Translations under genes and position numbers: made by a program
From: Eledone cirrhosa
Taxonomy: Eukaryota
Direction of reading: 5' to 3'
DNA: 64,000 nucleotides
Assembly (NCBI GenBank): GCA_964016885.1
Contig: CAXHJY010000961.1
Location: 62,001-126,000 of the forward strand
Notes under the pieces: model-generated
Databases searched by the model: none
What the model was told of the DNA's origin: nothing
Seen by the model: the letters and a program-made list of their open reading frames with translations, nothing else
Shown here: positions 3,830-58,921 of the stretch, piece by piece
Layout of the letters: every line of letters begins with the position of its first letter
How positions within the stretch are numbered: the stretch's first letter is position 1

Positions 3830-4790
3830 TCTCAGTTGTACATGTGTTGAAAGTAAAGCAAGTAAAGCATGGGAAGAATCATTTAAGCCACAACTGTACA
3901 TGTCTACAACTGACTTCATCTAAGATTGCGTTTTGAAACAAATACAATTATATTATGAAAAAGTCATTTTCGTCTGCCAAGATCTGATCTATGATCGTGT
4001 GTTGAAACTAAAACAATTACAGTGAGAAAGAGTCATTTTCATGACCGTTGTACATGTCTGGCAGCTGACTTGATCTGAGACTGCATGTTGAATCTAAAGC
4101 AATTGAAGTGTAGAGGAATCATTTTAGCAACAGTTATACTTGACTGGACAAGTGACTTGCTCTAAGATAATGTGTTGAAACTAATGCAATTACTACATGA
4201 AATATTTATTTTAGCCACAATTCTACTTATCTGGCAAGTGACTAGATCTGAGACTGCGTTGAAATTAAAGCAATTACTACATGGAAGAGTCATTTTAGGT
4301 ATAGTTGTACTTTTCTAGCTAGTAATTTTATCTGAGACTGTGTGTTGAAATTAATGCAATTACATTTCGGAATACTCATTTTAGCTGCAATTGTACATGT
4401 CTGACTAGTGACTTGATCTGAGACTGTGCTGAAATTAATGCAATTACTGCATGGAAGAGTCATTTTAGCCACAGTTGTACATGTCTAGCAGCTCACTTGA
4501 TTTGAGACTGTGTGTTGAAACTAAACCAATTACCTTTTGCAAGAGTCATTTTAGCCACAGCTGTACGTGTCTAAGACCGTGTTGAAATTAAAACAATTAC
4601 TGTGAGGAGTCATTGTAGTCACAGTTCTATATGTCTGACTAGTGACTTGGTCTGAGACTGTGTTGAATTTAAGGCAATTATCATGTGGAAGATTCATTTT
4701 AACCATAGTTGTACTTGTCTAGCAAATGATCTGAGACTGTGTTGAAACTAAAATAATTATAGCCAAGCAGGAGTCGTTTTAACCATACAC
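3830..4790. repeat. Degenerate ~80-bp tandem repeat, ~12 copies
   Basis: Recurring unit cagttgtacatgtct..cagtgacttgatctgagactgtgtgttgaaactaaagcaattac...gagtcattttagcca. Confidence 0.85.
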
Positions 4791-5139: not shown

Positions 5140-5262
5140 TTAGAAAATGTATTTTTATTAAAATTATTAATATTTGTTATTGTTATTTATATTATTTACA
5201 CTGTCCTTGTCTTTTGTATTGACCCTATATGTTGGCCCTTGTGGCCAATAAATGAAACTTAT
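5140..5262 (+). mobile_element. 3' UTR end of an L1/Tx1-like element
   Basis: Ends ...ttttgtattgaccctatatgttggcccttgtggccaataaatgaaa, resembling the terminus of the full-length Tx1 (gccctagtggcaaataaaagaaa). Confidence 0.5.
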
Positions 5263-8174: not shown

Positions 8175-9545
8175 TGGTTGATGGTATAGTTGTGGTGCTG
8201 GTGGTGGTTGTTGTTGATGGTATTGTTGTGGTGCTGGTGATGGTTGTTGTTGATGGTATTGTTGTTGTGTTGGTGGTGGTTGTTGTTGATGGTATTGTTG
8301 TGGTGCTGGTGGTGGTTGTTGTTGATAGTATTGTTGTGGTGCTGGTGATGGTTGTTGTTGATAGTATTGTTGTGGTGGTGGTACTGGTGGTTGTTGTTGA
8401 TGGTATAGTTGTGGTGCTGGTGGTGGTTGTTGTTGATGGTATTGTTGTGGTGCTGGTGATGGTTGTTGTTGATGGTATTGTTGTGGTGGTGGTGCTGGTG
8501 GTTGTTGTTGATGGTATTGTTGTGGTGCTGGTGGTGGTTGTTGTTGATGGTATTGTTGTGGTGCTGGTGGTGGTAGTTGTTGATGGTATTGTTGTGGTGC
8601 TGGTGGTGGTTGTTGTTGATAGTATTGTTGTGGTGCTGGTGGTGGTTGTTGTTGATGGTATTGTTGTGGTGCTGGTGGTGGTTGTTGTTGATGGTATTGT
8701 TGTGGTGCTGGTGGTGGTTGTTGTTGATGGTATTGTTGTGGTGCTGGTGGTGGTTGTTGTTGATAGTATTGTTGTGGTGCTGGTGATGGTTGTTGTTGAT
8801 GGTATTGTTGTGGTGCTGGTGGTGGTTGTTGTTGATGGTATTGTTGTGGTGCTGGTGGTGGTTGTTGTTGATGGTATTGTTGTGGTGCTGGTGGTGGTTG
8901 TTGTTGATGGTATTGTTGTGGTGCTGGTGGTGGTTGTTGTTGATGGTATTGTTGTGGTGCTGGTGGTGGTTGTTGTTGATGGTATTGTTGTGGTGCTGGT
9001 GGTGGTTGTTGTTGATGGTATTGTTGTGGTGCTGGTGGTGGTTGTTGTTGATGGTATTGTTGTGGTGCTGGTGGTTGTTGTTGCTGTTGATGGTATTGTT
9101 GTGGTGCTGGTGGTGGTTGTTGTTGATAGTATTGTTGTGGTGCTGGTGGTGGTTGTTGTTGATGGTATTGTTGTGGTGCTGGTGGTGGTGGTTGTTGATG
9201 GTATTGTTGTGGTGCTGGTGGTGGTTGTTGTTGATGGTATTGTTGTGGTGCTGGTGGTGGTTGTTGTTGATGGTATTGTTGTGGTGCTGGTGGTGGTTGT
9301 TGTTGATGGTATTGTTGTGGTGCTGGTGATGGTTGTTGATGGTATTGTTGTGGTGGTGGTGCTGGTGGTTGTTGTTGATGGTATAGTTGTGGTGCTGGTG
9401 GTGGTTGTTGTTGATGGTATTGTTGTGGTGCTGGTGGTTGTTGTTGCTGTTGATGGTATTGTTGTGGTGCTGGTGGTGGTTGTTGTTGATGGTATTGTTG
9501 TGGTGCTGGTGGTTGTTGTTGCTGTTGATGGTATTGTTGTTGTGG
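8175..9545. repeat. 36-bp minisatellite (gatggtattgttgtggtgctggtggtggttgttgtt), ~38 copies
   Basis: 12-aa periodicity in both ORF translations (DGIVVVLVVVVV; QQYHQQQPPPAP). Confidence 0.9.
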
Positions 9546-10769: not shown

Positions 10770-11820
10770 GTGGACACAATGACTGAATGGTTAAGGAGTT
10801 CACTTCACAATCATTACGTTTAGGGTTCAATACCACTACATGACATCTGAGGCGTCATTTAGGCCAATACCACTACATGATGACCTTAGGCCAATACCAC
10901 TACATGACATCTGAGGTCGATCAATGAATGTAACTGGGTAGACAAAAACAGTTTGGAATCTCGTCAGAAGAATTGTACACTGTTCTGGTAATTCAACTGT
11001 CCAACCTTGTCATTCACTTTATAATACTGATTCTCCCGCAGAATTATTATGCTAAAGGTACGCATATGTATGGAATGCTCAGCCACTTGTACATTTATTT
11101 CATGAACAGGCTGTCTCATTGATCAAACAACTGGATCACACATTGTCAAAAGTAATGGAGCTCCTTTGATTGATCAGCCAGGAAGAATAGACAGCTTTTC
11201 ACTTTTATTATTTTTTGTTAGAAATTCTTCTTTTTCTTCTTATTATTAGCTTTGCCTTTCAGCCTTACAAGCTCGATAAAATAAAGTACCAGTAATACAC
11301 TGGCGTCAATTTAATCGACTTTCCCCTACCACCAAAATCATTGGCTTTGTGCCTAAATCAGAAACCAGTAAAAGAGTGGTAGATTGGCAGTATCAGTGGA
11401 GCATTGGATAACATGCTTTGTGACATCAAGTTAAGGCCCTTTGCGTTCTGAGTTCAAATCCTGCCAAGCTTAGCTTTGCCTTTCATCCTCACAAGATCAA
11501 TAAATAAAGTACCAATAATACACTACAGTCGATTTAATCTGGCCTTGTTGCCTAAATCAGAAACCATTGTTATTAGTAGTAATAGTATTTTTATTAAAGT
11601 ACCAGTAATTCACTGGAGTTGATTTAATCGATCTTCCTCCTCCTCCAAAATTGCTGGCATTGTGCCTATATAAGAAACCATGCAGAGTCGTTAGAACATC
11701 AGATAGAATGCTTTATGGTATTTGTTCCAGCTCTCTGCTCTCAGAGTTCAAATCCCACCAGTAATGCACTGGGATAATTGCTGGCCTTGTGCCAAAAGTA
11801 GAAACAATTATTAGTAGTAA
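10770..11820 (+). mobile_element. Cluster of SINEs: one S2-type (10770-11165) followed by ~4 tandem/partial S1 copies
   Basis: tRNA-like head 'gactgaatggttaag...ggttcaatacc'; repeated 'aaagtaccagtaat.cactgg' cores. Confidence 0.7.
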
Positions 11821-12029
11821 TAATAATAGTATTTAGCACTATATACTTTTTGTTTGTTTCATCATTTGTTCTATTAAAATCTTGGCAAGAATATCTATTA
11901 ATCCTCCTCCTTGCTCCAACTCTACTTAATTTTACTTCATTTCAAACAGTTAAGACTCAGTGTTAAACAAATCTCCAGTAAACCTAACGGAAGAAAACAT
12001 TGCGACTTTGATGCATCAACCATTCTACA

Positions 12030-12590
12030 CATATCTTAGCATGTAACACACACACATATCTTAGCATGTAACACACATATCTTAGCATGTAACACACACA
12101 CATATCTTAGCATGTACCACACACACTACATGCGCACACTAAAAAGTTCCCTTTTAAAACACTCACACACACTACATACACACACTAAAAAGTTCCCTTT
12201 TAAAACACTCACACACACTACATACACACACTAAAAAGTTCCCTTTTAAAACACTCACACACACTACATACACACACTAAAAAGTTCCCTGTAAAAACAC
12301 TCACACACACTACATACACACACTAAAATTTCCCTTTTAAAACACTCACACACACTACATACACACACTAAAAAGTTCCATTTTAAAACACTCACACACA
12401 CTACATACACACACTAAAAAGTTCCATTTTAAAACACTCACACACACTACATACACACACTAAACAATTCTCTTTTAAAACACTCACACACACTACATAC
12501 ACAAACACAGAGTAAAAAGTTCCCTTTTGAAATACACACACTACATACAAGCACACATTAAAAATGTCCCTTTTATCATACATACAAGTT
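12030..12590. repeat. ~25-bp repeat (x4) followed by a ~46-bp minisatellite (~10 copies)
   Basis: Units acatatcttagcatgtaacacac and acactaaaaagttcccttttaaaacactcacacacactacatacac. Confidence 0.85.
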
Positions 12591-12928
12591 TCATTTTATC
12601 ACACATACACACACAACTTATAAAGCTTCCTTTTATAATCTAGAGTTAAATTACTTAATGAATTAATGAAAAAAAAAAAATACTGATGACGTTTGTACGT
12701 TCAAAACGTTTGTTTGTCCAAAACAACATAGATGAGGATAATTTAAAATTTAAATAATTAAACTTTGTTTCACAATTATTGGAATTGAAATAAAGTAGTT
12801 TTGGATAACGAGAAAGAAAGAAATAATGTATAATTTTTTTCTCTCCAAATCACACAAATTGATGCAACCTTTCATGGTCATGAGAACTGGTTGGTTTTCT
12901 GCATCACGTAAAATCTGGTTAACTGCAT

Positions 12929-13027
<99 letters not shown>

Positions 13028-13262
13028 ATACACATATATTTATATATCAATATACATATATATCCATACACATATATATATATATCCATACACATATACA
13101 TCCATACACATATATATGTAGCCATACACACATATATACATATCCATACAGACATATATATATCCATACACACATATATATATAAAAAAAAATATATATA
13201 TATATATAAATGAAAGGTATAGAAAACATTGTAGCGAAAAGCCAACAGTATTCCATAATATA

Positions 13263-13297
<35 letters not shown>

Positions 13298-13939
13298 TAG
13301 GCATATATATATATAGGCATATATACATATATATATTTATGCGTACATGTGTAGCTATCTCTCCATCAATCGATCTATCCACCAATCTATCTATCTATCT
13401 TTCTATCAATCTATATCTACCTGTATATCTATCTCTCTATTGATTGATCTAACTACCTATCTATATTTACCTGTCTATCTAGCTGTTTGTGTCTCTCACT
13501 TAAATTTATCAGATAGAAACGATAATTATATCTTCATTAACCTCAATTACCACACCTCTTCTCTCTCTGCACCACTTTACACATCTCCCCCTCTCTCTTC
13601 CATCTCCTTCTCCCTTTCTTTTCCTATCTTTCTCATTCTCACACATCTTTATTTCTTTCTCCATCTCTTACTATCCCCCCCCCCTCTCTTTATCTTTCTG
13701 TCTATCCACCACCTCTCTCTCTGCCACCTCCCTCTCTCTCTTTCTGTCTTTCCTCCTGCTTTCTATCTCTATCTCCACCACCTCCCTCTCTCTAGCGCTG
13801 TCTCTCCACCTCCCTTCTAACTATCTCCACCCCTCCCTCTTTCTCTCTCAATATTATTGTATCAGAACCAAACGGTTATCGTTTGAAAGTGTCTTTAATT
13901 ATATTAAGTTCATGACACACAGGCAAAATAATAAAATAA

Positions 13940-13988
<49 letters not shown>

Positions 13989-14099
13989 AATGAATAAAAA
14001 ACATGTTTTTTATTCATTCTGACAACTGAAGACAGATACATCTGTCTTCAAGAAACCGGTGGTAAATGAAATAATTATCTTATGTTGTTTATTACAGAA

Positions 14100-14166
<67 letters not shown>

Positions 14167-14711
14167 GAATAATTGAGAATCGGAATATCAGCCCACGAAA
14201 TCAGGATAAACAATATCCGACATGTATATATATATATATATAGTTAAATACATATATAGTTAAATACATATATAGTTAAATACATATATAGTTAAATACA
14301 TATATAGTTAAATACATATATAGTTAAATACATATATAGTTATTTCTTTCTGTTGAAGATTCCGTATAACATTTTTTACTTTTCAAATTGTTGTTGTTGT
14401 TGTTGTTGTTATGGTGGGGGGTAGTAGTGGTGTTGATGGTCATGGTGGTGGTGTGATGGTAATGGTTGTGTTGGTGGTGGTGTGATGGTAATGGTTGTGG
14501 TGGTGGTGGTGTGATGGTGGAAATAGCTGTGTTGGTGGTATGATGGTAATGGTTGTGTTGGTGGTGGTGTGATCATGGAAATGGTTGTGTTGATGGTAGT
14601 GTGAGGGTGGATATAGTTGTGGTGGTCATAGTTGGGCTGATGATGGTGATGGTTATGATGCTGGTAATGGTATTGGTACTCATAGTGATGATGATGGTGG
14701 TAGTGTGATGA

Positions 14712-15352
14712 TAATGGTTGTGGTGCCGGTAATGGTTGTGGTGCCGGTAATGGTTGTGGTGCCGGTAATGGTTGTGGTGCCGGTAATGGTTGTGGTGTCG
14801 GTAATGGTTGTGGTGCCGGTAATGGTTGTGGTGCCGGTAATGGTTGTGGTGCCGGTAATGGTTGTGGTGCCGGTAATGGTTGTGGTGCCGGTAATGGTTG
14901 TGGTGCCGGTAATGGTTGTGGTGCCAGTAATGGTTGTGGTGCCGGTAATGGTTGTGGTGCCAGTAATGGTTGTGGTGCCGGTAATGGTTGTGGTGCCGGT
15001 AATGGTTGTGGTGCCGGTAATGGTTGTGGTGTCGGTAATGGTTGTGGTGCCAGTAATGGTTGTGGTGCCAGTAATGGTTGTGGTGCCGGTAATGGTTGTG
15101 GTGCCGGTAATGGTTGTGGTGCCGGTAATGGTTGTGGTGCCGGTAATGGTTGTGGTGCCGGTAATGGTTGTGGTGCCAGTAATGGTTGTGGTGCCGGTAA
15201 TGGTTGTGGTGCCGGTAATGGTTGTGGTGCCAGTAATGGTTGTGGTGCCGGTAATGGTTGTGGTGCCGGTAATGGTTGTGGTGCCGGTAATGGTTGTGGT
15301 GCCGGTAATGGTTGTGGTGCCGGTAATGGTTGTGGTGCCGGTAATGGTTGTG
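14712..15352. repeat. 18-bp minisatellite (gtaatggttgtggtgccg), ~35 copies
   Basis: Highly homogeneous tandem; gives the spurious VMVVVP ORF. Confidence 0.9.
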
Positions 15353-15705
15353 CTGATGTTGTACTGGTGCTAGTGGTAGTTGTACTGGTGCTAGTGGGAG
15401 TTGTACTGGTGCTAGTGGGAGTTGTACTGGTTATGGTGGTGTTAATAATTGTGGTGGTGTTGATTGTAACAGTGGTAATGGTTGATTGTAACAGATGGTT
15501 CTAATTGCATCGGTGGTGTTGGTGTACCTGTTGCAGTTATTTGTATGCAGTTTTATGATTTTTGCATTAGTACAACTTCATAATCTTCATGACACCACCA
15601 CAACCTCCACAGCCATATAAATACCAACATCAACACCACCACCACTCTCATCACAACTACAACAAATAGAACTAACATGAGCACACCATTATTTATATTA
15701 ACTTT

Positions 15706-15930
15706 AGGGCGGTGGATTGGCAGTATCGGTAGAGGGTCGGACGACATGCTTTGCAGCATAGAGTTACGCCTCTTTACAGTCTGAGTTCAAATCCCGCTGA
15801 GGTTAACTTTGGCTTTCATCCTTACGGGGTTGATAAAATAAAGTACCAGGCACTCACTGGGATCGATTTAATCGACTTTCCCCACCCCCCAAACTGCTGG
15901 CCTTGTGTCTATATAAGAAACCATTATTTA
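15706..15930 (+). mobile_element. tRNA-derived SINE S1
   Basis: ggcggtggattggcagtatcggtagag...gagttcaaatcccg...aagtaccag...ccattatt. Confidence 0.85.
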
Positions 15931-15989
15931 TATTAACTTTGTTTTAAAGTGTTTACAGTTATCTCAATAGAGACTGATACAGTGGACCA

Positions 15990-17075
15990 ACGTAAAAGGT
16001 AGTTAATCCTGCTTGGCATCACCTTATGTTACAAGAAGAGCAACACCTGGATTCAATGGTATACAGGAGTAAAGGACATAACTAAGACCATTAAAGAGAG
16101 GCAAACATAAATTGGCTGGCCATGTCTCTCAAGAGACAACAGATGGACTGTTAGAGTGAGAGTGGACAGTTAGAGTGAGAGTGGGGCTGTTAGAGTGACA
16201 GAGGGGGCTGTTAGAGTGACAGAGGGGGCTGTTAGAGTGACAGGGGGGGACTGCTAGATGACAGGGGGACTGCTAGAGTGATAGGGGGGGACTGCTAGAT
16301 GACAGGGGGACTGCTAGAGTGATAGGGGGACTGCCACTGTTAGAGTGAGAGTGGGGCTGTTAGAGTGAGAGTGGGGCTGTTAGAGTGACAGAAGGGGCTG
16401 TTAGAGTGACAGAGGGGGCTTTTAGAGTGACAGGGGGGGGACTGCTAGATGACAGGGGGACTGCTAGAGTGACAGGGGGGGACTGCTAGATGACAGGGGG
16501 ACTGCTAGAGTGATAGGGGGACTGCCACTGTTAGAGTGAGAGTGGGGCTGTTAGAGTGAGAGTGGGGCTGTTAGAGTGACAGAAGGGGCTGTTAGAGTGA
16601 CAGAGGGGGCTTTTAGAGTGACAGGGGGGGACTGCTAGATGACAGGGGGACTGCTAGAGTGACAGGGGGGGACTGCTAGATGACAGGGGGACTGCTAGAG
16701 TGATAGGGGGACTGCCACTGTTAGAGTGAGAGTGGGGCTGTTAGAGTGAGAGTGGGGCTGTTAGAGTGACAGAAGGGGCTGTTAGAGTGACAGAGGGGGC
16801 TTTTAGAGTGACAGGGGGGGGGGACTGCTAGATGACAGGGGGACTGCTAGAGTGATAGGGGGACTGCCACTGTTAGAGTGAGAGTGGGGCTGTTAGAGTG
16901 ACATGGGGGCAACTGTTGAGTGACAGACAGTGTAGAAGAACTATAGGTTGACCAAATGCAAGATGATCTGTTGTGATACCTCAGCCCCACATGACCAGAG
17001 ATAGGAAGCAGTGAAAGTCAACTAGGGATGGGTTCCTCCAACAGGAGTGAGAAAGGCCTGGATTTAGATTATAGT
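15990..17075 (+). pseudogene. Degenerate 3' end of an RTE-clade LINE ORF, interrupted by a minisatellite
   Basis: Broken translation ...NTWIQWYTGVKDITKTIKER / WAGHVS / DNRWTVRV...DDL...DRKQW, matching the typical RTE C-terminus. Confidence 0.6.
16145..16915. repeat. ~20-bp minisatellite (ggggctgttagagtgacaga variants) with a ~190-bp higher-order repeat
   Basis: Marker 'gactgccactgttagagtgaga' recurs at ~16329, 16520, 16710 and 16862. Confidence 0.85.
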
Positions 17076-24282: not shown

Positions 24283-24957
24283 TGGTTTGGCAGTATCGGT
24301 AGAGGGTCAGACACCATGCTTTGCAGTATAGAGTTATGGCCCTTTACGTTCTGAGTTCAAATCCCGCCAGGTTAACTTTGCCTTTCATCCTTACGGGGTC
24401 TATTAAAATAAAGTACCAGTAATGCACTGGGGTAATTGTTGGCCTTGTGTCAAAAGTAGAAACATTACTATTGGATTGACCGTATCGGTAGAGGGTAGGA
24501 CACCATGCTTTGCAGCCTGGAGTTACGGCCCTTTACGGTCTGAGTTCAAATCCTGCTGAGGTTAACTTTGCCTTTCATCCTTACGGGATCGATAAAATGA
24601 AGTACCAGTAATGCAGTACGGTAATTGGTGGTCTTGTGCCAAAAGTAGAATTATTATTATTATTACCCCCTTTCTCCCTCTCTTTTTGTACTGTTCCCTA
24701 TATGTAGGGCCTTGTGGCAAATAAAGAAATCATTATTATTATTATTATGGTGGATTGGCAGAATCGGTAGAGCGTCGGACACTATGCTTTGTAGCATAGA
24801 GTTACGGCTCTTTACATTCTGAATTCAAATCCTGTTGAGATTAGCTTTACCTTTCATCCTTGCTGGGTCGATAAAATAAAGTACCAGTAATGCACTAGGG
24901 ATGATTTAATCGACTTTCCTCAAATTGATGGCCTTGTGCTTATATCAGAAAGAATTA
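24283..24957 (+). mobile_element. Three head-to-tail S1 SINEs, with a Tx1-like 3' end (24665-24731) in an (ATT)n tail
   Basis: S1 copies start at ~24283, ~24472 and ~24748; insert ...ttttgtactgttccctatatgtagggccttgtggcaaataaagaaat. Confidence 0.8.
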
Positions 24958-27567: not shown

Positions 27568-28317
27568 TACTCAGCCACCTGTTAATTACACAAACAAGCC
27601 GTTCTGTTGATCAAACAACTGAAACAACCACAGTCGAAACCAACGAAGGTTCATTCCAGGCGAGTAATTAATTAATAGAATATTTATTGTGTTGAATCGA
27701 ATCACTATCAAATGTACAGAAAATGTAAATAACCATTTGAAGCGCGGGAACGAATTGGAAATATGTAAATATTGGTGAGGGTGACGGTAAAATGAGAAAC
27801 TCTCTTTAAGTGGAACCAATCTCATGATAATTGATGTTGTATTATGTTAATGGTGGTGTATGGATGGCTTGTGTTTTTGTTGTTTTGTCTATTGCACTCT
27901 TGCTAGAAATTACGATATATTTGAGTGTAAAAATTACAGACATTCACAGACTGAAAGAAGGAAGCGGTTGATAAATAGATAGATGGATAGGTAGATAGAT
28001 AGATAGATAGATAGAGAGAGAGATAGATAGATGGATAAATAAATAGATAGATATATTTCTTTTATTTGCCACTAGGGCATCAAAAGTGGGACAAGTACAA
28101 AGGGGGGAGTTTACACAAAAAGGCGTCCTCAATAAGGAGGAGGCAATAACAAAATATAAAAATAAAATAAGATATAACAAAAAATAAAATTTTTAACAAA
28201 ATCCTCAATAGAGAGGAGGCGCCTTGGGGGGTCGCACACACCCCCGAAAAAAGTGTGCAACCCTTCTCCTCGGGAGCACAGAGAAGGGGTGCTCCCTTGG
28301 TCTTTCATCTTCCTCAC

Positions 28318-31300
28318 CTATAGTCTGATGTAGAGTGAAGGCCCATTCACACGGGCCATTCTCGCCACTTTCACCCATCTTTCATAGAAACGGCTGGGGT
28401 GCAGCACCTCTCTCTCCATCCTGATCCTTCTTCCGAAATGATATCGGAAGAAACGGACCAGTTGTTGGCCAGAGAGAAAGGTGCCCGACCTCAGTCCTTT
28501 CAGACGCGTCCACCATACAACCTCTTTCGCCATGGCTATTACGCACAGAAACACCGCCTCTGCTTCATCTTTGAAGGGGGGAGGCGGCTTGATCATTACA
28601 ATAGACTCGGTGGTCAACCGGATCGGTCCCACCCTTGACAGCAGTTGTTCGACATAGCCCCACAGATCGGCTACGCCCGAGCAGTGTACTAATGCGTGTG
28701 CAACGGTTTCCTCGTCGCACACGCATCTGGGACAGATCTTTTTGGCGGGGTCCCTACCCGGGCGCCCGTGTCTGTAGAGCCTTTCTCGAACGGGTAAAGC
28801 CCCTCGGTAGCACTGCCAGGCCAGGGACTTCTGGAAGTTGTCCATAGGTCCCGGGCTGAATGTCCTACCGAACAGGCTGGCCAGTTCGTCCTCCTCCATG
28901 TCTAGGGCTTCTCCGAGGGCGTCGTCGCACCTGCTGCGTACTAGCCCTCTATAGAATGTTGCGGTGGAGTCTCCACTGATAACCGGATCCGCCTGCCAGA
29001 GGGCGGTGAGCGCCTGGGCACACTCAGTGTGCCAGGCGCCCAGTTTTCTCGGTCTTTGCTTGACCCAGGATTGCAGCTCGGTGAGTGAGACGAGTCTGGG
29101 AAAGGTTCGTCTCACAAACGAGGCCCACACCGGTTGTCCGGTGAGGAATACGTAGAGGTGCCGTAGCCTTAATGCGTGTTTACGCATCATTAGCCACGGC
29201 ATCCCCAGCCCTCCTTTCGAAGGGTGTTGACAGCAGATGGATCTCCTCACCATAGGAGCCCGCCTCTTCCAAAGGAATTGGAAGAGCGCGCGCTCCATCT
29301 TGGTGAGGGTTTCCCTTGGGCAGGGCACTACGGTCAGGCGGTAGTAGATGACGGACGCTATGTAGGTGTTCGCCACCTCCGCCCGGCCTTTCAGGGATAG
29401 TTTGCAACTGGCCCACTTCTGGGTCAGTGCAAACACCCTGTTCGTAACCTCCGCCCAGTTTTTCTCCACCTGGAGGTCCGGTCCGAACCAGACCCCGAGC
29501 AACTTCACCGGGCCCTCCGTCCAGCGTCCGACGACGCTATCGGAGGGCATCGGTCTGCCCCTCCACGTGCCGAGTTGCAAACCGATCGACTTGTCCCGGT
29601 TCAGCTTAGCCCCTGTGAACTTTTCGTACTCCTCCAGTAAGGTGCCGACCGCCTCGATTTCGGAGGCCGTCGACACCATTACTGTCACGTCATCGGCGTA
29701 GGCCGACACCGCTTTCCGCAATCCCGGTTCCAAAGGGATGCCCTGCAACAACTCCAACTTCCGCAGTAGTGGCTCGAGAGTCAACACATACAGAAGGGAG
29801 GAGAGAGGGCACCCTTGTCGGATGGACCGCGCGATTTTGAACGGCTCCGAGAGGTAGCCGTTCACCTTGACCCTAGAGCAGATGCGGCTGCTGTGCATAG
29901 CAGTGATCCAGCCCCTGAAAACGGGTCCGAAGCCTGCCGCCGCTAGCACCGCATCCAGGTAACCATGGTCGACCCTATCGAACGCCTTAGATTGATCCAA
30001 GTTGATCAGAGCCCCACCAAAGCCGGGTTCGTTCCCAACCCTCTCTATGATGTATCGCATGAGGTGGAGGTTGTCATGGATGGACCTGGACGGGATAGCG
30101 CATGTCTGCGCATCTCCCACCAGGTTGCCCACGACAAGCGCCAACCTCTTTGCTAGCACCTTGGCCAAAATCTGTAACTCTGTATTTAGCAGTGTTATGG
30201 GCCTGAAGTTACTTATTTCGTCCCCCTTGTTCTCGTCCTTCCTCACTAGCGTGACTACGCCCTTGGTCACAGTACAGGGAATTCTCCCGTTCTGTTGCCA
30301 GTTGCAGTAGACCGCCTCGAGGAGATCGGGGAACAAGTCCGGCATAGCTAGATATAATTCGTAAGGAAGACCATCGAGACCCGGGGATTTGCGTTTGCCG
30401 CATTGGCTCAGCACGTCCTCTATCTCAGCGGCCGAAATCGGCTCTTCGCAGGACTTCGCCTCCCTGTCCGAGAGGCGCGGCAGGCCGTCGAGGTATGGAC
30501 CGAAGTCCACGTTCCCAACCGGCTCCCCGCCCCTCCCGAACAGTCGGGCAAAGTGCCTTTGAAAGGCCTCACACATCTGCTTAGGCTCAAGAATCGCCCG
30601 TCCATCCAGGTCTCGCAAAGACCGGATGGTGGATTTAGTTCCACTGTTGGCCTCTGTCACGCGGGCCCAGCTAACAGCTTTGGTCCCCTCGTTCCCTAGA
30701 GCACGTATTTTACTTCGGACAACGCAGCCTTCGTGCTTCGCGTCGAAAAACTGGCTCAAAGCCGTTCTCGACGCTAGCACTCTGGCCACGTCGCCGCTTC
30801 TAATTGCCTCTTCTACTCTATCTATTAGCTCCCTTTCCTTCCTATTCCTATCCGCAGCTAGAACCTTACTAAATTCTATCGAGACTACTCTAATCTCTCT
30901 CTTTAGAGATACCCACCACCTGCTGTTGACGATCGCTCCAGTCAACCGTTCCTTAACTAACGTACTAATCCGATTCCTGTAGGCTCTACTTGCCGGCAAG
31001 GACAAGTTGAGCTTCCAGTAACCGGGGCCCTGTCTATGAGTTCTGTCAAGGTTGACCATGCAGGTCACTAATTTGTGGTCTGAATAGCCAACAATGCGCA
31101 TTTTTGGACAACTTAAAAAGTCCTTCTCCTTAATTCTAACTAAGAACCTATCTAGGTACGACCTAGATGATCCGCTACGATTTGCCCAAGTCCAGGTTGG
31201 CGCAGTCGGAAAATCTAGTCGATATCTATCGGCCAGGTCAAATCGACCGATTAACCCTTTGAGGCTATTACACCCCTCTCTATCGGGGCAGGCCCCTACG

Positions 31301-31755
31301 TAGTCCCAGCGTGCATCTAGGATACCATTCCAGTCCCCCACTAATAGCAAGGAGCGGGACGTCCCTAGAAAAGTCTCCAGACGATGGAAGAAGTCCGGCC
31401 GCATTGACCCGAAAGGGCCGTAGGCGGCTACCAACCTAAACGCTCCGCCTTTACCACTGCCAAGGTCCAGAACCACTAGTCGACCCTCCGGGTCCAAATG
31501 TACCATCTGTGTTGCGAGACCCAGATGTTTTTGCAGCAGAACGACAACTCCACCCCCACCTCCGGGCTGACAGAGAGATGCGTGCATCTCAAAGTCATCA
31601 AAGGTGGGGGCCAGCTGTCGCACGTTGCTAATCCGGGCCTCGCAAATAACCATCACATCTATACGTTGTGACCTGAGGTCATTTAGAAGCATTGCTTGCT
31701 TCCAAGTTGAGCCCAGGCCACGCGCGTTTAAACAGCCTACTCTTAGCATAGCCAT
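28318..31755 (-). CDS. ORF2p: apurinic-like endonuclease + reverse transcriptase + C-terminal CCHC zinc finger (Tx1-like)
   Basis: APE motifs LNARGL, ICEAR, AYGP, GDWN, YLDRF, SDH; GPGYWKLN; RT motifs KSPGLDGLP, FRPITLLN, LDQSKAFDRVDH, RQGCPLS, YADD; CPRC..EETVAHALVHC. The ORF track starts at GTG 31779; the first ATG is at 31755. Confidence 0.95.
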   Translation of the reverse strand: MAMLRVGCLNARGLGSTWKQAMLLNDLRSQRIDVMVICEARISNVRQLAPTFDDFEMHASLCQPGGGGGVVVLLQKHLGLATQMVHLDPEGRLVVLDLGSGKGGAFRLVAAYGPFGSMRPDFFHRLETFLGTSRSLLLVGDWNGILDARWDYVGACPDREGCNSLKGLIGRFDLADRYRLDFPTAPTWTWANRSGSSRSYLDRFLVRIKEKDFLSCPKMRIVGYSDHKLVTCMVNLDRTHRQGPGYWKLNLSLPASRAYRNRISTLVKERLTGAIVNSRWWVSLKREIRVVSIEFSKVLAADRNRKERELIDRVEEAIRSGDVARVLASRTALSQFFDAKHEGCVVRSKIRALGNEGTKAVSWARVTEANSGTKSTIRSLRDLDGRAILEPKQMCEAFQRHFARLFGRGGEPVGNVDFGPYLDGLPRLSDREAKSCEEPISAAEIEDVLSQCGKRKSPGLDGLPYELYLAMPDLFPDLLEAVYCNWQQNGRIPCTVTKGVVTLVRKDENKGDEISNFRPITLLNTELQILAKVLAKRLALVVGNLVGDAQTCAIPSRSIHDNLHLMRYIIERVGNEPGFGGALINLDQSKAFDRVDHGYLDAVLAAAGFGPVFRGWITAMHSSRICSRVKVNGYLSEPFKIARSIRQGCPLSSLLYVLTLEPLLRKLELLQGIPLEPGLRKAVSAYADDVTVMVSTASEIEAVGTLLEEYEKFTGAKLNRDKSIGLQLGTWRGRPMPSDSVVGRWTEGPVKLLGVWFGPDLQVEKNWAEVTNRVFALTQKWASCKLSLKGRAEVANTYIASVIYYRLTVVPCPRETLTKMERALFQFLWKRRAPMVRRSICCQHPSKGGLGMPWLMMRKHALRLRHLYVFLTGQPVWASFVRRTFPRLVSLTELQSWVKQRPRKLGAWHTECAQALTALWQADPVISGDSTATFYRGLVRSRCDDALGEALDMEEDELASLFGRTFSPGPMDNFQKSLAWQCYRGALPVRERLYRHGRPGRDPAKKICPRCVCDEETVAHALVHCSGVADLWGYVEQLLSRVGPIRLTTESIVMIKPPPPFKDEAEAVFLCVIAMAKEVVWWTRLKGLRSGTFLSGQQLVRFFRYHFGRRIRMEREVLHPSRFYERWVKVARMARVNGPSLYIRL

Positions 31756-31779
31756 GTTGGTGGTGAAGAGAAAAGGCAC

Positions 31780-33558
31780 TTACCTCTCTGCGTCCCGGGT
31801 ATCGGGCTGCACAATTTCCATTAGGGTGGGGGATGGGTTGTTGGGTGGGGTGGTGGTTTGTGGAAGTGTGGGGGCATCAGTGTGTTGTGTGGTTGGGGAG
31901 CTTGGAGTTGTGTGGGTGTTTGGGGAGGGGGTGGGATAGTTTTTTAGGAGGACGCGGTTAATGGGCCCGACGCAGGGGGGACCCACGTCCTCTTTAAAAT
32001 TGTTTTTTAAAGTTTTATAGGTGTCCTGTGGGGCCTTAATCATTTTGAGGTGGGGGAAATCCCCTGCCTGGGTGAAGTTAGGCCCTTGTGTTTTTATTAG
32101 ATTGTTGTTGTACACAATGTTTAACAGTTTTTTGTTTCTTGTATTTATGTATGTGTATGCATGTTTTTGTTTTTGTGTGGTGTTTTTTGTTTGCTGTTGT
32201 GAGCTCTTTTGTGTTGGTGTCAGTGTTATGTTTTGGGGAGGGTTTTTTTTCATTTGTGTGTCTGAGGTGTGTTTTCTTTTTTTTCTTTTGATTGTGTGGA
32301 AGTGCTCCTCCTCGTCTGACGACGAACTAGGGTCATCTTCCGCGTTGGAGGGGAGGGGTATATTTTCGGGTTGTGTTTGCGGTACGGGTGTTTTGGAAAT
32401 TGTTTTTGTTTTTTGAGTGGAGGGGATGGGTTGGACATTGTTTTGTTTTGGTTTGAGCTGTGGTGGTTGTTTTTGTAGTGGTAGTTGTGGTGATTGTGTT
32501 GGTTGTGCAGCTGTTGGTGGTGTAGGCAGGATTGGGGTTTTCTTATTAAGTTGGGGACAGACAGCCCTCAGGTGACCTCTGGTTCCGCAGAGGTAACACG
32601 AGGGCCGTCTACCCTCAACGGTAATGTTGATGAAGGTTAGATCATCCAGTATGACGCGTTCAGGGATCTGGGCGATCCTTTCGGGCCTCATTTGAACTAC
32701 AAGTTCGAGGCTCGTTCCACTGAACGCGTCACCCGATGCCTTTCCCATGGACACCAGCATGTCATCCTCCAGGTCCAGAAAACCTGTCAAAACCCACCAT
32801 ATGTCCATAATCGGCAGGATGGTGTGGATTTTTATTTTTTGTGTTCTTCTACCCATGTACGTAGGGTAGAAGGTGTATGCGGTGGATGTGATTGGTTTGA
32901 TGGACAGTTTCACTGCTGTGTCCCTGTCCTTCATGAGAATGGATAGACTCCCGTAGAGTCTATCCTTCTGAATGAAGGTGATGTCCTTCATGACGTCTTT
33001 TAAAACCAGCTCTATCTCGCTCTGTGATGGTTGAGCTGGTTTTTTACTTTTGTTCGAGATTGTCCTAAACATGACCGTGTTTAGGAGTCTCTGGCTTTTT
33101 AGTTCCGGGGGGGAATGGATTGTGAATGAACCATTTTCCCCGTACACTATATATTTTTTCGCATCCGCCAGTAGCTCCTTCGCTTTTGTTATATCTACTG
33201 GCAGATAGTCGAGGGTTTTCCTTGTCGTCTCGGCGAAGGAGAAATTTTGTTTGTTTGTGTTGTTGTTGTCGTTGGTGGTGTTGTTGTTATCATTGTTGTT
33301 GTTGTCACCGTTATTGGTCTTGTTGTTGTTATTGTTATTGGTGTTGTTTTCGTCCGTCGCATTGTTGTTGTTGCTGTTGCCGCTGGTTCTTTGAGTTGTT
33401 ACCATGGCAACGTCAAGTTGTCGGTTAACAGGTGGAGAGAATTCTTCCTCTGGCTGACCTTTCTTCTTGACCTCTGCTACTGTGACAGTGGCAGGGGGAA
33501 GCTGTAAGTTCATCTTCCCCTTTCCTCCTTCGAATTTTGGTGAAGAAGCTTCGGCCAT
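31780..33558 (-). CDS. ORF1p (gag-like nucleic-acid-binding protein) of the Tx1 element
   Basis: 592 aa; zinc knuckle CYLCGTRGHLRAVC (CX2CX4HX4C), basic KRKKRK patch, Asn-rich and Pro/Thr-rich low-complexity tracts; lies immediately upstream of ORF2. Confidence 0.88.
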   Translation of the reverse strand: MAEASSPKFEGGKGKMNLQLPPATVTVAEVKKKGQPEEEFSPPVNRQLDVAMVTTQRTSGNSNNNNATDENNTNNNNNNKTNNGDNNNNDNNNTTNDNNNTNKQNFSFAETTRKTLDYLPVDITKAKELLADAKKYIVYGENGSFTIHSPPELKSQRLLNTVMFRTISNKSKKPAQPSQSEIELVLKDVMKDITFIQKDRLYGSLSILMKDRDTAVKLSIKPITSTAYTFYPTYMGRRTQKIKIHTILPIMDIWWVLTGFLDLEDDMLVSMGKASGDAFSGTSLELVVQMRPERIAQIPERVILDDLTFINITVEGRRPSCYLCGTRGHLRAVCPQLNKKTPILPTPPTAAQPTQSPQLPLQKQPPQLKPKQNNVQPIPSTQKTKTISKTPVPQTQPENIPLPSNAEDDPSSSSDEEEHFHTIKRKKRKHTSDTQMKKNPPQNITLTPTQKSSQQQTKNTTQKQKHAYTYINTRNKKLLNIVYNNNLIKTQGPNFTQAGDFPHLKMIKAPQDTYKTLKNNFKEDVGPPCVGPINRVLLKNYPTPSPNTHTTPSSPTTQHTDAPTLPQTTTPPNNPSPTLMEIVQPDTRDAER

Positions 33559-33771
33559 TTAAAAAAATATTGACTTTTCAACAAGAAAAAACTTTTTTTT
33601 TGTTTAACTATTTCGCCTAAAGGCGTAGAATATTTTGAGAGACTGACCAGATCAAAGTTTGACCTGGCAGTCCCTCTACAAAATGGTACAAAAATTAAAG
33701 TTATCAGACAAGAATTTCTATAGAAATTTAAACAGAACTTACTCAGCAAGTTATACGCGTGTGTCCATCCC

Positions 33772-33836
33772 AGAGAGATAGATAGATAGATGGATAGATA
33801 GATGGATAGATGGATAGATAGATAGATGGATAGATG

Positions 33837-33875
<39 letters not shown>

Positions 33876-34034
33876 GGATAGAGAGAGAGAGAGATAGATA
33901 GATAAATAGATAGATAGATAGATAGATAGATAGATGGATAGATAGATAGATAGATGGATAGATGGATAGGTAGATAGAGAAGTAGATAGAGAGAGATAGA
34001 TAGATAGATAAATAGATAGATAGATAGATAGATG

Positions 34035-34080
<46 letters not shown>

Positions 34081-34129
34081 GAGAGAGGGAGATAAATAGA
34101 TGGATAGATAGATAAATAGATAGATAGAT

Positions 34130-34130
<1 letters not shown>
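33772..34130. repeat. (GATA/GATG)n microsatellite at the 5' flank of the Tx1
   Basis: Direct reading. Confidence 0.9.
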
Positions 34131-34208
<78 letters not shown>

Positions 34209-40600: not shown

Positions 40601-42767
40601 AAATTCTGATCAGAAGGTATCTTAAATTCTGATCAGAGGGTATCTTAAATTCTGATTAGAGAGTATCTTAAATTCTGATCAGAGAGTATCTTAAATTCTG
40701 ATCAGATGGTATCTTAAATTCTGATCAGAGAGTATCTTAAATTCTGATCAGAGAGTATCTTAAATTCTGATAAGAGAGTATCTTAAATTCTGATCAGATG
40801 GTATCTTAAATTCTGATCAGAGAGTATCTTAAATTCTGATCAGAGAGTATCTTAAATTCTGATCAGAGAGTATCTTAAATTCTGATCAGAGAGTATCTTA
40901 AATTCTGATCAGAGAGTATCTTAAATTCTGATCAGAGAGTATCTTAAATTCTGATCAGAGAGTATCTTAAATTCTGATCAGATGGTATCTTAAATTCTGA
41001 TCAGAGAGTATCTTAAATTCTGATCAGAGAGTATCTTAAATTCTGATCAGAGAGTATCTTAAATTCTGATCAGATGGTATCTTAAATTCTGATCAGAGAG
41101 TATCTTAAATTCTGATCAGAGAGTATCTTAAATTCTGATAAGAGAGTATCTTAAATTCTGATCAGATGGTATCTTAAATTCTGATCAGAGAGTATCTTAA
41201 ATTCTGATCAGAGAGTATCTTAAATTCTGATCAGAGAGTATCTTAAATTCTGATCAGATGGTATCTTAAATTCTGATCAGAGAGTATCTTAAATTCTGAT
41301 CAGAGAGTATCTTAAATTCTGATCAGAGAGTATCTTAAATTCTGATAAGAGAGTATCTTAAATTCTGATCAGATGGTATCTTAAATTCTGATCAGAGAGT
41401 ATCTTAAATTCTGATCAGAGAGTATCTTAAATTCTGATCAGAGAGTATCTTAAATTCTGATAAGAGAGTATCTTAAATTCTGATCAGATGGTATCTTAAA
41501 TTCTGATCAGAGAGTATCTTAAATTCTGATCAGAGAGTATCTTAAATTCTGATCAGAGAGTATCTTAAATTCTGATCAGAGAGTATCTTAAATTCTGATC
41601 AGAGAGTATCTTAAATTCTGATCAGAGAGTATCTTAAATTCTGATCAGATGGTATCTTAAATTCTGATCAGAGAGTATCTTAAATTCTGATCAGAGAGTA
41701 TCTTAAATTCTGATCAGAGAGTATCTTAAATTCTGATCAGAGAGTATCTTAAATTCTGATCAGAGAGTATCTTAAATTCTGATCAGATGGTATCTTAAAT
41801 TCTGATCAGAGAGTATCTTAAATTCTGATCAGAGAGTATCTTAAATTCTGATAAGAGAGTATCTTAAATTCTGATCAGATGGTATCTTAAATTCTGATCA
41901 GAGAGTATCTTAAATTCTGATCAGAGAGTATCTTAAATTCTGATCAGAGAGTATCTTAAATTCTGATAAGAGAGTATCTTAAATTCTGATCAGATGGTAT
42001 CTTAAATTCTGATCAGAGAGTATCTTAAATTCTGATCAGAGAGTATCTTAAATTCTGATCAGAGAGTATCTTAAATTCTGATCAGAGAGTATCTTAAATT
42101 CTGATTGATGGTATCTTAAATTCTGATCAGAGAGTATCTTAAATTATGATCAGAGAGTATCTTAAATTATGATCAGAGAGTATCTTACATTCTGATCAGA
42201 TGGTATCTTAAATTCTGATCAGAGAGTATCTTAAATTATGATCAGAGAGTATCTTAAATTCTGATCAGAGAGTATCTTACATTCTGATTAGAGGGTATCT
42301 TAAATTCTGATCAGAGAGTATCTTAAATTATGATCAGAGAGTATCTTAAATTCTGATCAGAGAGTATCTTACATTCTGATCAGATGGTATCTTAAATTCT
42401 GATCAGAGAGTATCTTAAATTCTGATTAGAGAGTATCTTAAATTCTGATCAGAGAGTATCTTAAATTCTGATCAGAGAGTATCTTAAATTCTGATCAGAG
42501 AGTATCTTAAATTCTGATTAGAGAGTATCTTAAATTCTGATCAGAGAGTATCTTAAATTCTGATCAGAGAGTATCTTAAATTCTGATCAGAGAGTATCTT
42601 AAATTCTGATCAGAGAGTATCTTAAATTCTGATCAGAGAGTATCTTAAATTCTGATCAGAGAGTATCTTAAATTCTGATCAGAGGGTATCTTAAATTCTG
42701 ATCAGAGAGTATCTTAAATTCTGATCAGAGAGTATCTTACATTCTGATCAGAGGGTATCTTAAATTC
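40601..42767. repeat. 23-bp satellite (aaattctgatcagagagtatctt), ~94 copies
   Basis: Homogeneous tandem with internal palindrome tctgatcaga; recurrent variants gatcagatgg and gataagagag. Confidence 0.95.
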
Positions 42768-43623: not shown

Positions 43624-43759
43624 AGGAAAAAGTATGACCCCCGACGGCATGAGCTCTGCCGTCGGGGTCATACTTTTTCCTATTTCCCACTCTACTACCC
43701 TAAGTGTTGAGTACTCTGGTGCGTTATGGTCCGTCTGGTTCCTTACCACAATTCCTTTG

Positions 43760-43762
<3 letters not shown>
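43624..43762 (+). mobile_element. Family C fold-back element, short-arm copy
   Basis: aggaaaaagtatgacccccgacggca-tgagctc-tgccgtcggggtcatactttttcct, then the same tail and (TA)n. Confidence 0.75.
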
Positions 43763-45400: not shown

Positions 45401-46029
<629 letters not shown>

Positions 46030-55340: not shown

Positions 55341-55361
55341 GTTGGTGATCTATTTATCTAA

Positions 55362-55434
<73 letters not shown>

Positions 55435-55490
55435 ACTCTCTCTCTCTCTCTCTAGATACCTCTCACTGTCACTCCCAGTAGTTACGGCCG

Positions 55491-55539
<49 letters not shown>

Positions 55540-56926
55540 ATATCTATCTATCTATCAATCTGTCTCTCTATTATGGAAACCAACTCACGAGAGACGCAGT
55601 AGAGGAGGACATGCCTGAACCTTCACGATCAACCCTCACGTGATACAAACCTGTGCCAGGAGCAATGGAAAATGGTGAATCATGAAAAGACTTTGTCAAG
55701 AATATTCGACTGTCGTCGCAATGATGATGATGATAATTATATAAACATCACTTCTATTATTTCATCATGTACCATCTTCATATTACCTCTCTTCTCTTAT
55801 CTTATCAAGCACTACATCCTTTCATTTTTTCCCCTTACTCCACTATATAATATCTCGTCTCTACTCTTATCTAACATAACACCACTTATTTCATTATATC
55901 ACATCTTAATATCACATTACATAACATTACTTCTTCAATTCATATCCAACCATCAATTGTTAGTTTGTTTGTGACAACACTTGACACCTCTAACTTGTGT
56001 TGCCGTCTTCAGATTGTGTCATGAGAACCAATAATATAATAACAACGTTTTTAGTTTACCGACAATTAACTGAAGTTGACTGGAGTCTGGCTGTGAGGGA
56101 TGGACTTCATTATAATTACTGCTAAGAATGTATATGGCAGAAAAGAATGTAAAAGCACAGTCATCCGTAAAACGATAATAACAATAATGATAGTAACAGT
56201 TAATGATGGAATGGAAAGGATCTCCGTCAGTGACGACGATCAGTGTTCCAGTTGATCAAGCAAGGAAACAGCCTAGCCTACTCATGAAATTAAATATATA
56301 AGTGTCTGAACATTCTTTGATCTTGAAACACGTCTAATCTGGTTTCCTTGGCGAGGTGGGACATTTTGTACGCTCCCCCGCCGACAAGGTTCTTGTTCGC
56401 TTTTGTTCATAAAATGTCTCCCATCATGTGGGGAAGTTCTTGTGAGAATAAGGTAGACTATGGTGAGATTCCACTAAAAACCTAATTGGTCGTATTTTTA
56501 GGATGAGCTCCTCAAAGACAAACCCTTTTGTGTATATTTCGTTGTTATGTTGTAGTATATATACTCCATTAACTCATTGTTGTTACTGGTGGTGGTGGTG
56601 GTGGTGGTGGTGGGGATTTTGCTGCTTGTATTGTTGTTGTTTTACTGAAATTTCTAGTTTGTTTTGTTTAACTCGTTGTTGTTGTTACTGGTGGTGGAGA
56701 TGGAGATGACCGTGGATGTAGAGATAGTGGTGGTGGTGATGGCGGTGGTGCTGCTGGTGTTGTTGTTGTTGTTTTACTGACAGTTCCAGTTAGGTCTTTG
56801 CTTTGTTTTGTTTTTTCCTGTTCTAGATGACTTCTTGCTGTTATTCGTATTTATGTTAACTGTTACAACAATAATACTACAAATAATAATAGCAACGATG
56901 ATACTACTACTACTACAACTGCTATA

Positions 56927-57775: not shown

Positions 57776-58661
57776 AAAAATAATAATATCTTTATTTGCC
57801 ACAAGGCCTAGAGAAATAATTTCAGTTAGTAATATCCATCAGATGCCAAGCAGTATAGTCTTCATTCTTTCATCTTATCCAATTGTCATATCCATAACTT
57901 CCACTCCTCTCCTTTCATCACCTTATCTTCACATTATATTATAGCTCCATCTCTTGTCACACAGAACACTCTCTCATTTATCTCCCCTTCTTTCTTTCAT
58001 CAATCGTTCTTTGTGACATCACATCTCCAACTTGCTCAGTACAACACCTCAAGACACCCTCTATCCCAATCTCCCTCTCTGTATATATATATATATATAT
58101 ATATGTGTATATATATGGTTATGTATCTCGCTAGCTCTGTCTCTCTATATATGTCTGTGCATATATATATATAGGTGTGTGTATATGTGTATATATAGGT
58201 GTGTGTATATGTGTATATATAGATGTGTGTGTATATATACACATATATTAATCTCTCACACTCTGCCACTCTCATCTCTGATTACTAGATATCTAATCAT
58301 ATATTAACTCAACGCGTCTTCATTTGATCTCCCCCCCCCCTCTCTCCCTGTTTCTCTGTCTCTCCCCCACATCCACCCCCTCCCCTGATTATTCCTTGCA
58401 GTTATCTAATCAAACATATCTTAACATACCTTTATTTCTTCTCTCTCTCTCTCTCGATTTAAACCCTATCTATCAATCTATCTATCTATGTCTGTATTTA
58501 TCTCTCTCTCTCTTTATATATATATAAAGAGAGAGAGATAAATACAGACATAGATAGATAGGGTCTAAACGGAAACTTCAATACTTATATATGTATATAT
58601 ATATCTGTATACACATACACGCATATATATACATATATATGTATACATACACACACACACA

Positions 58662-58727
<66 letters not shown>

Positions 58728-58731
<4 letters not shown>

Positions 58732-58918
58732 AAAAAATATGACCTCGATGGCAGAGCTCAAGCCGTTTCGACGGCTATTTCTGGACTGAAATAGCCGTCG
58801 TAACGTCTTGAGCTCTGCCGTCGGGGTGATACTTTTTCCTATTTCCCACTCTACTACCCCAAGTATTGAGTACTCTGGTGCGTTATGGTCCATCTGGTTC
58901 CTTACCACAACTCCTTTG

Positions 58919-58921
<3 letters not shown>
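58728..58921 (+). mobile_element. Family C fold-back element, between (TA)n tracts
   Basis: Near-identical to 2451-2645 but with a different loop (tggact). Confidence 0.8.

Follow-up and report, generated by a model that had tools for sequence, protein, structure and literature searches.

The question raised by this locus is whether a retrotransposon chooses the simple repeat in which it lies. We analysed a 64-kb window, that is, the whole stretch of 64,000 nucleotides (nt) at positions 62,001 to 126,000 of contig CAXHJY010000961.1 from Eledone cirrhosa. On the minus strand at 28054-33771, it contains a long interspersed nuclear element (LINE) with two open reading frames (ORFs), both open, that is bounded on each side by (GATA)n, which reads (TATC)n in the orientation of the element. 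We find that the family of this copy probably has a real preference for (TATC)n, and that (TATC)n is likely a new target unit among the known microsatellite-targeting Tx1 LINEs. On balance, we lean towards a young and intact Tx1-like LINE family that inserts preferentially into pre-existing (TATC)n/(GATA)n, where the choice of target is led by the endonuclease and aided by RNA pairing.

Repeat arrays at both ends of the element

The 3' end of the element, ...AATAAAAGAAATA, passes directly into TATCTATC and poly(A) is absent. On the other side, ...ATCTATCTCTCT directly precedes the 5' end, which begins with GGGATGG. A preliminary description of this locus had reported the missing poly(A) and the direct passage into the repeat at both junctions, and we observed the same. 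It had also called the flanks (TCTA)n, which is right for the type and the strand of the repeat but not for its purity. Tandem Repeats Finder (TRF) reports a GATA array of 21 copies with 85% matches at 27970-28053 and an AGAT array with 87% matches at 33772-34202, the GATA-type portion of which stops near 34136; according to a rough tokeniser, 57% of the units in the 3' array and 70% in the 5' array are perfect AGAT units. Both flanks are thus degenerate.

The two arrays have one unit, one strand and a compatible phase; taking ...AAAGAAATAT as the end of the element brings them into phase. Furthermore, the variant units ATCC, CTCT, ATTT and ACCT are common to both flanks. As the element is young (see below), a newly made tail would be expected to be purer; the degenerate repeats on both sides fit one old array that was split by the insertion rather than a fresh tail. 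A target-site duplication is indistinguishable from the surrounding repeat. Other copies are one CT unit shorter at 33772, and the CT(CT) ahead of GGGATGG may be part of the element. Self-BLAST found no terminal repeats and thus no long terminal repeats (LTRs), and neither blastn nor tblastn found another copy in the window.

Outside the locus, GATA-like tracts make up 494 of ~57,600 bases (0.86% under a loose criterion), with 0.23% on the strand of the element and 0.63% on the other strand. At this base rate of 0.2-0.9%, a matching 5' flank is improbable by chance for a single insertion, an estimate that is limited by the window being ~40% tandem repeat and by the post hoc choice of the locus. 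Two other (TATC)n arrays in the window, at 13373-13466 and 55347-55571, bear no trace of the element and are empty potential targets.

GATA-type junctions in other copies

The stretch is present, as a whole or in part, in nine of 13 listed public runs from five studies. The run search covered DNA, and it listed none of these nine as RNA; the best-matching run may derive from the source sample. Four public runs were aligned to 28034-33791, that is, the element plus 20 flank letters per side, comprising 32,911 contigs (X4), 3787 contigs (X1), 168,204 reads (X11) and 195 contigs (X9). Reads matching human DNA had been removed beforehand, and repeat-rich reads may be lost. The read ends of X11 fit a SphI/MluCI-type library. 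The window copy has no SphI site; thus, X11 reads that start at such inner sites come from other copies.

The summed depth in X4 is ~200,000-730,000 over 28034-30529 compared to ~11,000-17,000 in the non-repetitive bins of 32450-33791, a drop of ~30-fold from the 3' part to the 5' part, where depth does not equal copy number and includes diverged subfamilies. Together with the truncation joints, this fall indicates a multi-copy family with variable 5' truncation. The copies span from >99% to <90% alike, and at least 99% similarity is found for 4846 of the 32,911 X4 contigs and 203 of the 3787 X1 contigs. Judged by these similarities, the family is young, so that the young multi-copy family proposed in the preliminary description is recovered in both runs. 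For instance, five letters and nine gaps are all that separate a 1665-nt X1 contig in ORF1 from the window copy. Among the 40 of 2195 differences that were listed, 36 fall in ORFs (15 silent and 10 non-silent in ORF2; 3 and 8 in ORF1) and no stop is among them.

GATA-type 5' junctions were observed at three truncation points and, for at least two sequence variants, at full-length 5' ends. One truncated copy is seen as a joint from 29361 to 28047 with AGATAGATAGACAGACAA (18 letters) in between (X11, 106 reads, one start), the short side of which has 52 letters. By its letters, this joint is a truncated copy, then a GATA-type spacer of ~25 nt and then the 3' end of another copy. At the second truncation point, 29382 is joined to the GATA flank (X11, 78 reads). 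At the third, an X4 loose end behind 28902 tracks a diverged copy to ~28919 and is then followed by TAGACATAGATAG, which is GATA-type (three contigs). Full-length 5' ends are visible in a two-letter deletion at 33772 (11 X4 contigs; 75 of 336 X11 reads, five starts), the calling of which requires alignment on either side of the junction. In addition, an X4 contig that is ~11% diverged (18 letters and one gap in 169) aligns from 33620 to 33789 and crosses the 5' junction. Lastly, a joint from 33791 to 28034 is found in 167 X11 reads with seven starts, with a side of up to 32 letters, more than the 20 flank letters supplied. The preliminary description had proposed to tabulate the 5' flanks of other copies. 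This check is answered in part: several other copies, truncated ones included, adjoin GATA.

We excluded several candidates from the junction evidence: ten 'skip' joints, a 33345-33310 joint that is a slip in an AAC repeat, 17 of the 24 listed loose ends (X1/X4/X11), which by eye look like diverged homologous sequence and were in part checked against the reference, and six X9 loose ends that begin in A-rich or TTG-rich tracts.

Proposed mechanism

In the scheme that we favour, the apurinic/apyrimidinic-type endonuclease (APE) of the element would likely nick the GATA strand of a pre-existing microsatellite. The geometry of the insertion implies a first nick on the (GATA)n strand, and we infer that APE prefers this strand. 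The RNA of the element, whose 3' end is predicted to consist of a few UAUC units, would then pair with the nicked strand and prime reverse transcription. Polyadenylation cleavage takes place 10-30 nt downstream of AATAAA, and a putative AATAAA lies 7 nt before the junction; the RNA would thus be cut inside the repeat and carry target units at its 3' end. A transcript cut inside the repeat would also explain the missing poly(A). As each insertion leaves target on both sides, later copies could land at the tails of earlier copies. Target-primed reverse transcription with APE as the main determinant of target choice has been described for the Tx1 clade (PMC4494074).

Alternative explanations

A preference for (TATC)n might be mimicked if the element itself produced the repeat as a 3' tail, or if the insertion had reached a GATA array by chance, the GATA junctions in the reads being the visible few among random ones. 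Several observations weigh in this direction and against a target preference. The window is rich in tandem repeats and the copy number of the family is very high; given thousands of copies at the above base rate of GATA-like DNA, some GATA junctions will occur by chance. What was listed is partial (15 of 363 joints, 12 of 241 rows of letters between, 24 of 3561 loose ends and 12 of 72 indels), such that no proportion can be derived. The 20 flank letters in the reference favour GATA joints, since with them GATA junctions appear as joints and junctions with unique DNA fall among the unlisted loose ends. Two listed X11 joints come without GATA (33506 to 29192, 120 reads, two starts; 29514 to 28346, 72 reads), which could reflect nested insertion, a deletion (across a tandem pair) or chimerism in the library. 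In one X4 contig, the alignment extends just five letters beyond the 5' junction, with 31 more letters unlisted. Unrelated GATA contigs align to the flank alone (the X9 depth of 49 at 33772 alone makes up the entire mean of its bin); thus, the flank depth and the X4 and X1 rows of the 33791 joint (side 21 and 18) are uninformative. The 29361 joint has a single start and possibly comes from one molecule or locus, and the starts of the 29382 joint were not reported. The Kojima criterion for target specificity is one sequence type in >20% of the flanks at both ends, for copies at least 95% alike (PMC4494074); the listed rows, with their biased ascertainment, hold several independent GATA junctions and two non-GATA joints. 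Nevertheless, we consider a tail or a chance site clearly unlikely: the two arrays are equally degenerate in spite of the young element, a 5' repeat of matching unit and strand is rare at that base rate, and the GATA junction recurs across the truncation points and full-length variants. It is even less credible that the 5' repeat is part of the mobile unit or spreads with it, either as a co-transcribed upstream repeat or in tandem blocks that arise by unequal recombination between GATA arrays. Such an origin would account for the joints in which a GATA spacer links copies head to tail (29361 to 28047 and 33791 to 28034) and for the recurrent (CT)n directly ahead of GGGATGG; however, the window copy is solitary in the 64 kb, and truncated copies that lack the 5' end still adjoin GATA, which leaves this explanation very improbable.

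A different alternative accepts the preference and attributes it mainly to RNA-DNA pairing, with a loose endonuclease that nicks widely and a UAUC-ended RNA that primes efficiently only in (GATA)n. The position of AATAAA and the absence of poly(A) would suit this explanation, as would the pairing of target-like RNA that has been proposed for SART1Bm and R1Bm (PMC7265360). Two further findings speak against a choice led by the endonuclease. Related 3' ends in the window adjoin (ATT)n and not (TATC)n, at 24666-24730 on both sides, as if a repeat read through from a master copy set the target. Moreover, the hairpin loop of the endonuclease has nine residues, the length found in L1, whereas a loop of 11 residues, the length in the Tx1L endonuclease (PMC1950540), was measured in 60 of 96 rows. 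The length of the loop differs even inside the close group of the element, and thus the loop cannot decide between a choice led by the endonuclease and one led by pairing. In contrast, the Tx1L endonuclease (Tx1L-EN) is sequence-specific in vitro, where it nicks almost exclusively its own site (PMC1950540), and target choice has been attributed chiefly to the endonuclease (PMC4494074). We therefore regard pairing as the main determinant as possible, if on the unlikely side.

Proteins encoded by the element

ORF2 matches the Pfam domains Exo_endo_phos, RVT_1 and zf-RVT, the last under the curated cut-off. It comprises an APE (residues ~1-235), a reverse transcriptase (RT; residues 512-755 by Pfam) and a C-terminal CCHC zinc finger (residues 976-1032). 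Among 99 aligned sequences, the element has the majority residue at N10, E39, D141, N143, D202, D226 and H227 of APE, at D587, D688 and D689 of RT and at C1008, C1011, H1020 and C1025 of the C-terminal finger. The open ORFs and the APE and RT motifs given in the preliminary description are thus confirmed; the two ORFs encode 592 and 1145 amino acids (aa). With an N-terminal APE, an RT, a C-terminal zinc finger and no LTRs, the element has, in its sequence, the features of an APE-type non-LTR retrotransposon (LINE) of the L1 group.

The CPLSS motif, usually CPLSP, had been suspected to be a mutation specific to this copy. We find CPLSS also in a relative with 69% identity (P0003), and the position is variable among the 99 sequences (P in 53, G in 39, A in 4, S in 2), so that CPLSS is no sign of damage. 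The position is not among the 40 listed differences between copies.

ORF1 has a weak Pfam match to zf-CCHC (E 0.051). For its core (33240-32524), a fold was modelled with a mean predicted local distance difference test (pLDDT) of 92.6 from 44 sequences, and the top Foldseek matches of this core are tandem-RRM proteins (E 7e-5). ORF1 also matches Atlas clusters that are annotated zf-CCHC/RRM. ORF1 is therefore predicted, with the model as a guide, to contain two RRMs and one CCHC knuckle. The stop of ORF1 and the start of ORF2 are separated by a spacer of 24 nt. The 3' untranslated region (UTR) is weakly structured (z -2.05; 4 of 200 shuffles are equally good). Coordinates are given in Table 1.

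Table 1. Coordinates of the element, its flanks and the dispersed (ATT)n-ending repeat in the window.
Feature	Position	Strand	Description
5' flank	33772..34136	-	degenerate (TATC)n in element orientation, (AGAT)n on +; then (AC)n, (AT)n on +
5' UTR	33559..33771	-	213 nt; begins GGGATGG
ORF1	31780..33558 (start 33558, end 31780)	-	592 aa; Asn-rich N-terminus, two RRM-like domains, one CCHC knuckle, Pro/Thr/Gln-rich tail
ORF2	28318..31755 (start 31755, end 28318)	-	1145 aa; APE, RT, CCHC zinc finger
3' UTR	28054..28317	-	264 nt; 18-nt inverted repeat 28251-28298; 19-nt direct repeat at 28126 and 28202
AATAAA	28061..28066	-	putative polyadenylation signal (function inferred); 7 nt ahead of 3' junction
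3' flank	27970..28053	-	degenerate (TATC)n, 21 units; adjoins element directly, without poly(A)
Dispersed (ATT)n-ending repeat	5270, 11246, 15707, 19189, 24293, 24483, 24749, 48376, 57162, 57552, 57772		

Relationship to other LINEs

The proteins nearest to the element are P0003 from NCBI (69% identity) and a protein of Argonauta hians (62%), followed by ENA/JGI proteins at 36-45%. The Argonauta match, the nearest one with a name, makes an octopod host probable. The ENA/JGI sister group (P0005-P0035 and P0089-P0135, 36-45% identity) includes clusters of up to 732 members and contigs of up to 1.1 Mb. ORF2 scores 336, 309 and 231 bits against pol-like proteins of Tetraodon, Danio and Takifugu, respectively, and 237-313 bits against six fish proteins labelled TX1 or YTX2, labels that stem from automatic annotation. 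Human L1 ORF2p aligns across residues 8-857 (E 3e-48; 167 bits); the best Tx1-type matches reach twice this score. The intact Tx1-like LINE of the preliminary description is in line with these higher scores to Tx1-labelled fish proteins than to human L1.

In a FastTree RT tree of 96 rows, from which four chosen rows had been dropped for short matches, the element shares a branch with the TX1/YTX2-labelled and pol-like fish proteins (support 0.988). In a quick IQ-TREE analysis of 42 rows, the element, P0003 and the Argonauta protein form an octopod group of three rows with a support of 99 in the Shimodaira-Hasegawa-like approximate likelihood-ratio test (SH-aLRT). This group joins 10 ENA/JGI rows (SH-aLRT 100) and stands outside a fish-plus-turtle group (99); the link of the octopod/ENA/JGI lineage to the fish-plus-turtle group has a support of 0.18 in FastTree. 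Thus, the IQ-TREE tree did not nest the element in the vertebrate Tx1 lineage with Kibi, Koshi and the crocodilian (TTCC)/(TTTC) families. Both trees were inferred without Xenopus Tx1L, a Repbase reference or an L1 outgroup, and the IQ-TREE tree was midpoint-rooted with no approximately unbiased (AU) test. The fish pol-like proteins BAC82603/05/09 presumably come from the Kibi/Koshi study; an attempt to link the BAC826xx accessions to those names failed. A gag-like ORF1 with RRM and a CCHC knuckle is a feature of Tx1 and is found in the element; it also occurs in other LINE clades and is thus not diagnostic alone. Taken by its sequence, the element probably not only acts like Tx1 but is Tx1. 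Scans for related loci returned distant elements only, namely 80 metagenome loci (24-40% identity) and three loci on viral contigs. A GATA-type array was found in none of the 83, which carries little weight at such distance and on short contigs. P0001 had no match in the searched genome contigs, viral contigs and plasmids.

Microsatellite-targeting LINEs of the Tx1 clade include teleost Kibi with (TC)n and Koshi with (TTC)n as well as crocodilian Tx1-1_Crp, Tx1-5_Crp, Tx1-6_Crp, Tx1-1_Gav and Tx1-2/3/5/8_AMi, which target (TTCC)n or (TTTC)n (PMC4494074, PMC3812793). Like these families, the element is an APE-RT LINE inside a short simple repeat with the repeat on both sides, and among labelled proteins, it scores best against fish pol-like and TX1-named ones. 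In contrast, its TATC/GATA unit is not among the targets described for them in the parts of these sources used here. Compared to this group, ORF2 is only ~25-27% identical overall (34-36% in RT), ~150 aa shorter and in an RT lineage of its own. The parallel to Kibi and Koshi that had been drawn earlier thus concerns behaviour.

In Octopus vulgaris, L1-Tx1 comprises 80 families, 13 of which were recently active and account for 421 near-full-length insertions that total 2,288,644 bp (PMC13282606), which by division gives a mean of ~5.4 kb. Young intact copies of the size of our element are thus ordinary in octopus. The parts of that source used here describe no target preference, and 'microsatellite' and 'target' are absent from its supplement. 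Human LINE-1 ORF2p (PDB 8sxt and others) resembles the element in the order of APE and RT, the aligned catalytic residues and the nine-residue endonuclease hairpin loop. Unlike the element, human L1 carries a poly(A) tail, and its TTTT/AA target is loosely defined (PMC1950540), and two RRMs with a CCHC knuckle set the ORF1 of the element apart from it.

Simple repeats are also targeted by LINEs of other clades: Waldo (ACAY)n, Mino (AC)n and Dong (TAA)n (PMC3812793), SART1Bm (TTAGG)n (PMC7265360) and Togen (TG)n (PMC4640811). The element shares the insertion strategy with them, and SART1Bm is the precedent for pairing of RNA and target; these LINEs belong to other clades, use other units and are likened to the element by description only. 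In the literature searched, we found no Tx1 that targets (GATA)n and no target-specific Tx1 of octopus; such a target may be recorded in sources outside this search, namely Repbase Reports, the 2004 paper by Kojima and Fujiwara, the figures or supplements that accompany PMC4494074, and the library deposited on Zenodo for PMC13282606.

Look-alike 3' ends and other repeats

With at most one mismatch, GTGGCAAATAAA occurs six times in the window compared to 0.49 times expected; one of these is the element's own. The look-alikes elsewhere in the window cover the last 12-60 letters of the element. At 24666-24730 on the plus strand, a piece of 65 nt has a 58-column match to the 3' end of the element (score 50 vs 30.9 +/- 2.8; reached in 0 of 100 shuffles); it has (ATT)n on both sides and lies between units that resemble short interspersed nuclear elements (SINEs). 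The look-alikes at ~5190-5260 (+), 57785-57810 (-) and 62175-62200 (-) are followed by ATT-rich sequence and two of them then by a SINE-like head. The look-alikes, which are too short to class, may be remnants of a sister family that uses a different repeat, or they may represent an unrelated retroposon's tail.

A dispersed repeat of ~190-260 nt (Table 1), with copies 75-90% alike and often in tandem, ends in (ATT)n and contains a GTTCAAATCC box. Its 3' end GGCCTTGTGCCAAAA resembles the GTGGCAAATAAA motif. It resembles a tRNA-derived SINE; Rfam gave no match in the window, this repeat included. A second dispersed repeat of ~120-180 nt with 87-94% similarity is found at 2453-2636, 43644-43760 and 58730-58919. 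Inverted arms at 45684-45783 and 45898-45997 (100 nt, 96% alike, 114 nt apart) resemble a miniature inverted-repeat transposable element (MITE). Minisatellites are located at 40601-42767 (23-nt unit x94, 95%), 8177-9544 (36-nt unit x38), 14712-15352 (18-nt unit x36, 97%) and 3998-4572 (86-nt unit x6.7). None of the 42 non-repeat frames scanned (48 listed) had a Pfam match, and hence no host gene was seen.

Significance

Insertion into microsatellites is an established strategy, and octopus commonly carries young intact copies of Tx1; the finding is thus a modest surprise. GATA arrays are numerous in animal genomes, which limits the worth of the element as a tool for integration at a single site. 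If the preference for (TATC)n is confirmed, the GATA/TATC target unit and a mollusc lineage would join the short list of microsatellite-seeking LINEs, the mechanism of which is not well understood according to a review (PMC3812793). An intact copy with two ORFs, together with the apparent sister ends at (ATT)n, makes the question of endonuclease versus RNA pairing directly testable. A more speculative idea, which we think improbable at present, is that an invertebrate Tx1 lineage gained microsatellite targeting apart from Kibi and Koshi and that its sister families switch targets, (TATC)n here and (ATT)n in the relatives, via the read-through repeat at the 3' end of the RNA and not by the endonuclease alone. 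If true, this would be an integration preference that is programmed by the RNA tail, and it may have a part in shaping the load of microsatellites, which is very large in octopus genomes.

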